A stretch of DNA of 64,000 nucleotides from an uncultured Gammaproteobacteria bacterium (GTDB lineage Bacteria > Patescibacteriota > Microgenomatia > Woykebacterales > RBG-16-39-9b). Position numbers and translations under genes: made by a program. Below, one piece after another: positions 36,944 to 37,150 of this stretch (position 1 is its first letter; each line of letters starts with the position of its first letter). Below the pieces are notes generated by a model, which saw only the letters and a program-made list of their open reading frames with translations, ran no database searches and had not been told where the DNA came from. The stretch spans positions 138,549 through 202,548 of the forward strand of contig CAYHXX010000001.1 of the NCBI GenBank assembly GCA_964360785.1. Direction: 5' to 3'.

Positions 36944-37005
36944 TGCGCCTGTAGCTCAGTGAAGCAGGTGCTTCGCACCCAACGATATGAATCGCAGAGC
37001 ACTAA
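36944..37005 (+). pseudogene. Degenerate tRNA-like fragment (5' partial copy of tRNA-Arg)
   Basis: GCGCCTGTAGCTCAGTG... resembles the start of the following gene, GCGCCCATGGCTCAGTGG. No complete cloverleaf. Confidence 0.45.
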
Positions 37006-37009
37006 ATAT

Positions 37010-37085
37010 GCGCCCATGGCTCAGTGGATAGAGCGCGTGGCTTCGGACCACGAGGTCGGGGGTTCGAATCCCTCTGGGCGCGCCA
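37010..37085 (+). tRNA. tRNA-Arg(TCG)
   Basis: GCGCCCATGGCTCAGTGGATAGAGCGCGTGGCTTCGGACCACGAGGTCGGGGGTTCGAATCCCTCTGGGCGCGCCA; anticodon loop CTTCGGA. Confidence 0.75.
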
Positions 37086-37093
37086 TTTTGAGT

Positions 37094-37150
37094 TCGGTCC
37101 GCCAGCTGGCGGATTGAGTGCGGAGCACTTGCGTCCCTCCAGGCGCGCCA
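37094..37150 (+). repeat. Palindrome CCGCCAGCTGGCGG plus a partial 3' copy of tRNA-Arg (att-like scar)
   Basis: The sequence tcggtccgccagctggcggattgag is followed by gtccctccaggcgcgcca (against the tRNA 3' end atccctctgggcgcgcca, 14 of 16). Confidence 0.6.

Follow-up and report, generated by a model that had tools for sequence, protein, structure and literature searches.

We analysed a 64,000-nucleotide (nt) stretch of contig CAYHXX010000001.1 (the window), part of an ultra-small and streamlined Patescibacteria (candidate phyla radiation, CPR) genome from Hainich groundwater. Comparison with related genomes indicates that the tRNA-Arg(TCG) gene of the window is enclosed by two fragments, O5 upstream and O3 downstream, that are not decayed copies of it but what is left of both ends of an older, resident gene for the same tRNA. 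This makes the locus a recombination scar in a tRNA hot spot: the older gene appears to have been split, and a second allele to have taken over its place and function, and the nest is one case of a recurrent process in a Woykebacteria-like clade. We place the probability of this explanation, a resident gene split and replaced by a nested second allele as a recurrent event of the clade, at roughly 0.55.

Contigs identical to the window are found in the ENA assemblies Hain_H52 R1 and R2 and in Logan assemblies, and the named relatives by Lon protease similarity are Candidatus Woykebacteria. ARAGORN and Rfam identify 14 tRNA genes in the window. Orthologous loci of relatives were retrieved through Lon homologues and, for relative L094, through a DNA pattern search of metagenomes. 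Among the matches listed, a Lon-based scan of GTDB species genomes gave relatives of at most 58% identity that lack the tRNA synteny, and a pattern of the Arg 3′ end, a gap and tRNA-His gave 0 matches in a metagenome collection that does not contain these contigs (L093 should match).

Table 1. Coordinates of the tRNA-Arg(TCG) nest, the predicted helix and related tRNA remnants (window positions unless a relative is named)
Feature	Location	Strand	Description
Promoter-like site	36906-36934	plus	TTTAAA, 17-nt spacing, TAGAAT, TG ahead; predicted to drive the tRNA-Arg/tRNA-His transcript
O5, apparent 5′ remnant of the older tRNA-Arg(TCG) allele	36945-36985	plus	tRNA positions 1 to ~44
Leader, remnant to intact gene	36986-37009	plus	holds GCAGAGCACT, a possible further tRNA D/anticodon-stem scrap
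I, intact tRNA-Arg(TCG), presumably functional	37010-37085	plus	acceptor GCGCCCA/TGGGCGC; ARAGORN and Rfam
O3a	37090-37096	plus	GAGTTCG, apparent remnant of the old T-stem 5′ strand with T-loop TTCG; 4 nt past CCA
ins, insert in the old T loop	37097-37133	plus	37 nt; palindrome 37098-37113 and 15-nt arm 37118-37132
O3b	37134-37150	plus	TCCCTCCAGGCGCGCCA; apparent old T-stem 3′ strand, acceptor 3′ strand, discriminator and CCA
tRNA-His(GTG)	37157-37233	plus	encoded G-1 (tRNA body 37158-37233); conserved right-hand border of the locus
Leader-trailer helix, 5′ arm (predicted)	36940-36978	plus	partner 37118-37153
Leader-trailer helix, 3′ arm (predicted)	37118-37153	plus	partner 36940-36978
tRNA-Val(TAC) nest	25434-25672 (tRNA 25523-25599)	minus	upstream GGGTTCTTAGTTCAGTCGG, 30-nt hairpin insert, TAGAGCGTCTTGTTT
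tRNA-Gln(CTG) nest	10507-10707 (tRNA 10560-10633)	minus	5′ remnant TCCGGGATCGTCTAGCGG directly after a TAAAAT box
tRNA-Lys(CTT) 3′ remnant	41235-41304		positions 32-76 of another allele with T-loop insert, 2 nt after the tRNA
tRNA-Phe copy	24858-24881	minus	positions 1-24, 23/24 identical; 96 nt upstream of the tRNA-Phe start
Degenerate 3′ module after tRNA-Leu(TAA)	23752-23807	minus	GGGGAGTTAGG (CTTTCGCTGAAGGCGAATGAGCGAGTTG) TCCCTCCTCGCCCACCA
tRNA-Gly(TCC) remnants in relatives	L088 8588-8775; L098 3109-3166; L099 9541-9633; L093 9417-9431		

An intact gene within two probable fragments of an older allele

The inner gene (I) forms a complete cloverleaf and scores 70.6 bits against RF00005, for which the gathering score is 29, and the outer fragments (36945-36985 and 37090-37150) have no Rfam tRNA match even at E <= 10 (Table 1). 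A sequence-only reading of the window had reported partial 5′ and 3′ copies on either side of tRNA-Arg(TCG), and both are present, with 17-nt blocks at 36945-36961 and 37134-37150. The first block of O5, GCGCCTGTAGCTCAGTG (36945-36961), lies 65 nt upstream of the matching tRNA positions, and O3b lies 65 nt downstream of its counterpart. O5 retains its first 17 nt intact and carries three small deletions in the D arm and anticodon arm. Between the CCA of the inner gene and O3a there is just TTTT (37086-37089), and the distance from this CCA to the 3′ repeat is 48 nt, slightly longer than the 45-bp spacer first described. O3 ends 6 nt ahead of tRNA-His, which adjoins tRNA-Arg in all relatives with a tRNA-Arg gene at this site. 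The leader between O5 and the inner gene shows no homology to the leaders of L088 or L096.

Shuffling, the check proposed with that reading, shows that both flanks are more tRNA-like than expected: in local alignment of flank to tRNA the observed score was reached by 5/2000 and 2/2000 shuffles, and a second shuffle test at tRNA-Arg gave p = 0.002 and 0.008. Chance similarity, or an assembly artefact mixing the alleles of two strains, can hardly explain the nest. In favour of an artefact, two short-read Logan contigs of this strain stop at 37079 and 37082 and another begins at 37191, so that this assembler left the 3′ remnant unbridged in those samples; low coverage, strain heterogeneity or a sequencing bias caused by hairpins might account for the breaks. 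Against an artefact, two independent ENA replicate-sample assemblies (L002 and L001) span the entire nest with 100% and 99.9% identity, and the layout recurs at other loci and in other genomes, which different groups had assembled. Chance is rejected by the shuffle tests, and the strongest evidence against it is the identity of the fragments with alleles of relatives.

The fragments fit each other and not the inner gene, because the differences that set them apart are compensatory pair changes. The acceptor strands read GCGCCTG and CAGGCGC in the fragments compared with GCGCCCA and TGGGCGC in the inner gene; the four differences constitute two compensatory changes, at acceptor pairs 6:67 and 7:66 on both strands, and the CAGGCGC of O3b pairs with the GCGCCTG of O5. 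The same allele exists intact in relatives. The terminal block of O5 is identical at 17/17 nt to positions 1-17 of the intact tRNA-Arg in L098 and L102 (16/17 for the L093 allele), and the block at 37134-37150 is identical at 17/17 nt to the intact 3′ end in L098, L102 and L093. The single intact tRNA-Arg of L098 and L102, GCGCCTGTAGCTCAGTGG...TCCCTCCAGGCGCGCCA, is an allele with the ends GCGCCTG...CAGGCGCGCCA and occupies the same slot between promoter and tRNA-His. Over its full length, O5 is best matched by the tRNA-Arg of L094 (score 42), a variant of this allele in which the anticodon arm fits the decayed interior of O5. The borders agree as well: O5 starts 10 nt past the -10 box and the tRNAs of relatives ~12-16 nt past it, and a TTTGGTAGAATACG-type -10 region (TGgTAGAAT) is kept at the same place in the alignment of L088, L099, L093 and L098. 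Together, allele identity, mutual pairing and borders like those of the single gene in relatives argue that both fragments derive from a single older resident gene, as its two ends.

Two readings of O5 and O3 as parts of an interrupted tRNA were considered and rejected. A split or intron-containing tRNA does not fit: O5 is short of 5 nt in its D arm and anticodon stem, positions ~45-49 are missing and a 37-nt insert takes the place of the T loop, so that no cloverleaf can be rebuilt. The disrupted tRNA genes (split, permuted and multi-intron) of archaea and red algae (PMC3978253 and PMC3728597) are similar in that tRNA blocks are parted by unrelated sequence with one break in the T loop; the nest differs in that its outer halves give no cloverleaf, the host is a bacterium and the interrupting sequence holds a complete tRNA. 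Group I introns in tRNA genes are known from Patescibacteria (PMC13011429). In a permissive Rfam scan of 36100-38700 the only matches were the tRNAs and two chance plastid matches, and the intervening 100-150 nt are too short for such an intron.

Uninterrupted and partly interrupted loci in relatives

Gene order around the site is kept as YidC - SPFH - tRNA-Gly - tRNA-Arg(TCG) - tRNA-His - Lon, with tRNA-Arg in different states. L096 (Lon 89% identical to that of the window) has an inner-type gene only, 6 nt from tRNA-His, and L092 (89%) has no tRNA-Arg at this site. L088 and L095 (87-88%) have the promoter followed directly by an inner-type gene, TAGAAAAAA, GGGTTCG, a 22-nt hairpin, AATCCCTCCTGGCGCGCCA and tRNA-His; L088 thereby has a 3′ remnant and no 5′ remnant. 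The inner acceptor type is also that of L088 and L096. L098, L099, L093 and L102 (76-78%) and L094, in which Lon is not on the contig, carry a single gene and no remnants.

An uninterrupted Arg/His locus, which the sequence-only reading had suggested seeking in related genomes, therefore exists: six of them (L096, L098, L099, L093, L094 and L102) have a single tRNA-Arg followed by tRNA-His after 5-13 nt, and L102 has a clean layout at every locus examined. Loci free of flanking cargo were also found, as L102, L093 and L099 have, at this locus, neither of the two GC-rich ORFs (open reading frames) of the window nor a substitute gene. That reading had set a scar against a universally conserved structured element, and the arrangement is not conserved among the relatives examined, as expected of a scar. 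The spacers on either side, between tRNA-Gly and tRNA-Arg and between tRNA-His and Lon, hold differing genes or none according to lineage; in the former, L088 and L098 have a DHO_dh (dihydroorotate dehydrogenase) gene and L094 a 78-amino-acid ORF.

The same pattern at other tRNA genes

We tested all 14 tRNA genes of the window for cognate fragments in their flanks by shuffling. Significant fragments occur, beyond Arg, at Gln(CTG), Phe, Val and Lys (p <= 0.01 each). Upstream fragments correspond to positions 3-18 of tRNA-Gln(CTG), 1-24 of tRNA-Phe and 21-35 of tRNA-Val, downstream fragments to positions 35-58 of tRNA-Val (23/24 identical) and 35-57 of tRNA-Lys, and a less clear 3′ remnant follows tRNA-Leu(TAA). 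The loci share a layout in which a 5′ remnant near the promoter or upstream gene is followed by the intact tRNA and then by a 3′ remnant ending in CCA, with 0-9 nt between the intact tRNA and the 3′ remnant except at tRNA-Val (28 nt). The 3′ remnants begin at the T-stem or at the anticodon loop.

All nine of the 3′ remnants examined (window Arg, Gln, Val, Lys and Leu(TAA); L088 Arg and Gly; L096 Lys; L098 Gly) carry a hairpin-containing insert of 22-37 nt after the old T-loop TTCG. Several inserts from different isotypes and genomes (window Lys, L096 Lys, L098 Gly, L088 Gly and window Leu) are homologous to one another, with an approximate consensus of CTTTTGCGAAGC(G)AAATG.GCG..TTG and hairpin stems that differ in a compensatory manner (TTTGC/GCAAA, AATTGC/GCAATT, TTCGC/GCGAA and TCCGCC/GGCGGA). 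Changes in the remnant acceptor strands relative to the inner gene largely keep the pairing of 5′ and 3′ remnants, with 6/7 pairs at Gln and 7/8 at Val. At tRNA-Gln the nest holds two hairpins, one with a 16-nt palindrome (10653-10668), and the 3′ remnant reads GGTTCG (CTTTTCGCAACGCGAAAACTCCATG) TCCTAGCCCCGGATCCA, its acceptor strand pairing with the 5′ remnant. At tRNA-Val the upstream remnant is an allele that is intact in L093 and overlaps the stop codon of a NUDIX gene, a gene that is absent at that position in L093 and L102; the downstream remnant reads TACACTGAGTAGGTCAGGGGTTCG, 22 nt, TCCCTCAAGCACCC. In L093, the region between Val and Phe holds two tRNA-Phe-like 5′ remnants and a tRNA-Val-like 3′ remnant.

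The clearest case is tRNA-Lys of L096 (2700-2990), where positions 1-47 of the usual allele of the clade precede a complete gene of another allele, AAAA, and the T arm of the usual allele with an insert and its 3′ end. The usual allele stands alone in L088 and L092, and in the window this allele precedes a 3′ remnant of the other one, an arrangement reciprocal to that of L096 with homologous inserts. This remnant fills the spacer between tRNA-Lys and tRNA-Arg(TCT) in the window, a spacer of 3-4 nt in L088 and L092. A tRNA-Gly(TCC) allele that the window (36168-36242) and L102 have intact survives elsewhere only as pieces, with a 5′ remnant in L088, L099 and L093 and a 3′ remnant in L098. In L088, a 5′ remnant of the window type occurs together with a 3′ remnant of the L093 type, a mixture that implies at least two successive replacements. 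The non-coding Gly nest, with a hairpin-containing leader CGTGCTAAAGCACG..., is ~90-95% identical between L088 and L099, compared with 74% for the neighbouring SPFH gene.

Predicted pairing of leader and trailer

The region of the tRNA-Arg nest has a predicted minimum free energy of -103.2 kcal/mol (z = -4.4), and the duplex predicted between its leader and trailer reaches -53.1 kcal/mol compared with -36.5 +/- 5.0 for shuffled sequences, of which 0/300 were as good. The predicted helix comprises ~31 pairs, including a 7-bp acceptor-like stem and a 15-bp run, GCAGGUGCUUCGCAC / GUGCGGAGCACUUGC, with two G-U pairs, in which the arm at 37118-37132 is complementary to 36964-36978. It may have a local role: in the modelled fold, pairing of O5 with O3 could keep the remnants harmless, since O5 could otherwise pair with the 3′ strand of the inner gene through two G-U pairs.

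One alternative explanation of the locus is that this helix, with its acceptor-like stem and GCCA end, is functional, guiding RNase III/RNase P processing of tRNA-Arg or stopping the fragments from mispairing. The stability above that of shuffled sequences would fit such a role, as would the start of the helix close to the expected transcription start and the fact that the only two exceptions to Watson-Crick pairing in the 15-bp segment are G-U pairs on the transcribed strand. With 0/34 positions changed, next to a decayed O5 interior and despite saturated neutral divergence, the terminal blocks of both remnants point the same way. Both arms are missing in six relatives, however, and one arm is missing in L088, which has the 3′ remnant only; remnants elsewhere are of non-complementary alleles (L088 Gly) or single (window Lys and L098 Gly); and a structured 65-nt trailer should impede 3′ trimming compared with the 5-13-nt spacers of relatives. 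Given its absence in relatives and the other loci without a partner remnant, we do not regard the helix as an evolved processing signal, and a functional helix is a distinctly improbable explanation of the nest.

Leader-trailer pairing as a general feature of tRNA flanks in this genome was likewise rejected, as it is clearly significant for Arg(TCG) only; at Leu(TAA) the 5′ arm of the pairing lies upstream of the promoter-like TATAAT read in the 5′ flank. Leader-trailer processing stems of rRNA operons are RNase III substrates. The tRNA-Arg helix resembles them as a long helix formed by the flanks of a stable RNA in one transcript, and differs in being predicted, in not being conserved and in having arms that derive from a dead tRNA gene.

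Lineage-specific islands and the case for integration

The interval from tRNA-His to the lon promoter (37234-38600) is a lineage-specific island. It encodes ORF300 (37423-38325, minus strand, GC 0.59), which has no Pfam domain and four homologues, all distant. The first 26 nt of the island (37239-37264) and its last 85 nt (38502-38586; ~110 nt in a MAFFT alignment) are homologous to L094 (L094 3514-4380), where the cargo between the shared ends differs and consists of HicAB-like genes. The right end (38545-38600) resembles the 3′ half of tRNA-His with extra bases after TTCGA(G). Alone, the tRNA-His-like piece at 38552-38600 is not significant (63/2000 shuffles as good), and it gains weight only because of the 85-110-nt homology with L094. 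Near the right end, on the minus strand inside the island, 38438-38480 holds a tRNA 3′-end-like fragment, GGTTCGAATCC...TACCCGGGTAGCCA, with a 12-nt palindrome, CTACCCGGGTAG. Beyond the island, the lon promoter lies inside a conserved inverted repeat, TTAGCAGTCTCTTGACATAGTTGCTAA (TTAGCA...TGCTAA around the -35 box; window 38597-38650), which all relatives examined share and which probably serves a stress regulator as its operator.

The sequence-only reading had interpreted the repeated tRNA 3′ end as an integration footprint flanked by GC-rich foreign genes. The genes are GC-rich (0.475 and 0.588 compared with 0.417 for the window), but both lie outside the nest of O5, tRNA and O3. Of the footprint itself, the scar, the 3′ copy from the T arm and the module at an island end hold up; against it stand the 5′ fragment, the other allele and the lack of an element between the repeats. 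Insert-bearing 3′ modules can end islands, which supports the idea of integration in general, and an integration origin of the nest has partial support.

In its classical form, this idea holds that an integrase-bearing element integrated in the T loop or 3′ end of tRNA-Arg, leaving the tRNA as attL and the 3′ fragment as attR (attachment sites), and that the body of the element was then deleted with the 5′ fragment as debris. We consider this account of the nest unlikely. It does explain an intact tRNA with a direct 3′ copy that runs from the T-stem 5′ strand (37090) to CCA (37150). Identity blocks of T-loop-type integration sites reportedly start at the T arm, as O3 does, and the T arm and anticodon loop, where other 3′ remnants start, are said to be the two main integration sublocations in tRNA genes. 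The island after tRNA-His, with such a module at its far end and cargo in between, is also in its favour. However, no island DNA was found between the tRNA-Arg repeats, only TTTT, and gaps of 4 nt here and 0-9 nt at 7/8 other 3′ remnants (28 nt at Val) are unlikely products of random deletions. Canonical integration yields no upstream 5′ fragment, and the model keeps the host 5′ strand in the working tRNA, whereas here the host-type 5′ strand is separate and the intact gene is non-host on both sides. The insert, moreover, sits midway in the supposed identity block.

Integrase genes would also be expected, and a Pfam scan that covered 46 ORFs of the window (~10 further ORFs were identified by synteny with annotated loci only) found 0 integrase, resolvase or transposase domains. 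Scans of viral contigs gave 0 matches to the tRNA-Arg body and 0 matches to the T-loop insert motif.

Integrative elements are documented to leave partial, attR-type copies of tRNA genes at their target sites (PMC9897764, citing Reiter 1989 and Williams 2002). The nest resembles these in having a direct copy of the 3′ part downstream of an intact tRNA, starting at the T arm (elsewhere at the anticodon loop), and in lying at a hot spot with lineage-specific cargo where the island after tRNA-His ends in such a module. It differs in the 4 nt between tRNA and fragment and the extra 5′ fragment upstream, in the fragments being of another allele, pairing with each other and holding a T-loop hairpin insert, and in the lack of an integrase nearby.

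A small dispersed palindrome

The palindrome within the former T loop of the 3′ fragment had been described as a perfect 14-bp palindrome at the junction. It is perfect and somewhat larger, a 16-mer, TCCGCCAGCTGGCGGA (37098-37113), and a small repeat rather than a mark of the tRNA-Arg junction. A second exact copy in the window (10653-10668) lies between the 5′ remnant and the intact tRNA-Gln(CTG), in opposite orientation relative to the tRNA, and a copy with one mismatch lies at 2504-2517 in a spacer beside an A-run. A 20-nt core, GTCCGCCAGCTGGCGGATTG, also occurs in a Roizmanbacteria contig (L019, 10983-11015), in an AT-rich spacer with 13-nt direct repeats, ATATTTGATATTT, on both sides. The 20-nt palindrome was found as well in one GC-rich viral contig, inside apparent coding sequence, and was there taken as coincidence. 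We read the palindrome as a small element similar to REPs (repetitive extragenic palindromes) that landed in dispensable DNA and not as a signal at the tRNA-Arg junction, and it may be a small mobile element common to Microgenomates. Like REPs and miniature inverted-repeat transposable elements (MITEs) it has multiple dispersed non-coding copies; it departs from them in that copies are very few, that T-loop inserts at other remnants differ in sequence, and that no transposase is known to go with it and none was seen in the window.

Discussion

We propose that a DNA segment with a second tRNA-Arg allele came to lie between O5 and O3 and took over the function of the resident gene. Transcription would still run from the old promoter through O5, the new tRNA and O3 into tRNA-His, and RNase P and 3′ trimming would presumably free both real tRNAs, with the RNA of O5 and O3 as by-products able to pair together. 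The old T loop would also have received a short hairpin insert bearing the palindrome. Across the clade, new alleles would nest in or beside old ones at hot spots, leaving 5′ remnants by promoters and 3′ remnants with T-loop inserts by the next gene. As the driver, repeated insertion of foreign DNA into tRNA genes seems most likely, which could occur through small integrative islands carrying in a tRNA copy or 3′ half and shedding their cargo afterwards, or through illegitimate recombination with DNA of related lineages. On the latter idea, that DNA uptake from relatives feeds tRNA-gene turnover, bears a type IV pilus / competence-like gene set of the window (10800-18858), with a pilin with an N_methyl motif, T2SSF and a T2SSE ATPase.

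Foreign DNA would not be needed if local partial tandem duplications of the resident gene were followed by divergence of the acceptor stem, an alternative that we judge quite unlikely. Duplication of a 5′ part and of a 3′ part is formally equivalent to nesting a gene in itself. In favour of this alternative, both repeats are offset by exactly 65 nt, and at tRNA-Lys of L096 the remnant and the nested gene share an anticodon stem specific to L096. The inner gene and O5 likewise share an anticodon-arm type (GTGG/CCAC) that differs from those of L088 and L096. Duplication leaves unexplained, however, why the remnants equal an allele that is intact elsewhere and why the functional copy bears the two compensatory changes, when it is dead copies that should drift. 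The remnant alleles of Lys and Gly correspond to those that function in distant lineages and vary among close relatives, a distribution that calls for exchange between lineages, and the Gly nest shared by L088 and L099 is far more similar than the SPFH gene beside it.

Several observations weigh against replacement by a nested allele. The anticodon-arm type shared by the inner gene and O5 means that intragenomic duplication or later gene conversion fits as well as import of the second allele. Simple nesting does not account for the 15-bp complementarity of O5 to the insert. The tRNA-Arg nest holds no cargo, and the window ORFs scanned gave no integrase, resolvase or transposase domain. The age of the remnants poses a further difficulty. 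At four-fold degenerate sites lon is saturated relative to the closest relatives (identity 0.32, compared with 0.30 for random sequence), so neutral sequence shared since those splits should be unrecognisable. The inner-type allele is common to the window, L088 and L096, and if replacement took place in the ancestor of all three, remnants that evolve neutrally should no longer be intact. Nevertheless, 34/34 positions in the terminal blocks of O5 and O3 show no change, with ~7 changes in 27 positions of the O5 interior; the similarity of the Gly nests and the inserts shared across lineages also run counter to the expectation of decay. The pieces are thus either young and moving between lineages, by horizontal spread of alleles, or under selection or constraint. 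Presence and absence of remnants in close relatives, together with mixed alleles, favour recent exchange.

None of the recombination models considered fits all loci, whether single crossover of a circle with a full tRNA, crossover in the T loop or at 47/48 with a tRNA borne by an element, or target duplication at a staggered cut, and a retro-copy of a mature tRNA fits only tRNA-Lys of L096, with its exact tRNA and AAAA. In situ gene displacement is the xenologous or allelic replacement of a gene at its own locus. Replacement by a nested allele is like it in that an equivalent copy takes the same position, promoter and neighbours, and differs in that the new copy is nested in the old gene, both old ends survive and the event recurs at many tRNA genes. 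Literature searches turned up no description of nested tRNA remnants or of T-loop hairpin inserts.

A bolder version of the replacement explanation, which we hold as a possible but doubtful one, is that CPR bacteria harbour a previously undescribed selfish or mobile tRNA cassette that inserts into a resident gene for the same tRNA near the variable loop or T arm and thereby becomes indispensable. Insertion would destroy the resident copy and leave a short hairpin in the old T loop, cargo would erode, and alleles would spread horizontally. Position-specific inserts across isotypes, the tRNA-Lys nest of L096 and a near-identical Gly nest despite saturation allow for such a cassette and do not prove it.

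tRNA genes are classical landing sites for mobile DNA, which usually leaves a single partial 3′ copy behind, at the distant end of a large island. Here there are many compact three-part scars, each with a working tRNA within its predecessor and with position-specific hairpin inserts. For CPR metagenome-assembled genomes, such remnants can mislead tRNA annotation and the prediction of island boundaries, and they can flag past exchange between lineages in which neutral sites are saturated. If a dedicated mechanism is at work, it would be a new route by which tRNA alleles spread and become fixed, with a cargo-poor integrative module, a self-essential tRNA cassette and T-loop-targeted hairpin elements as candidates; a hairpin element that targets the T loop, or a mobile cassette, would be of high interest if true.

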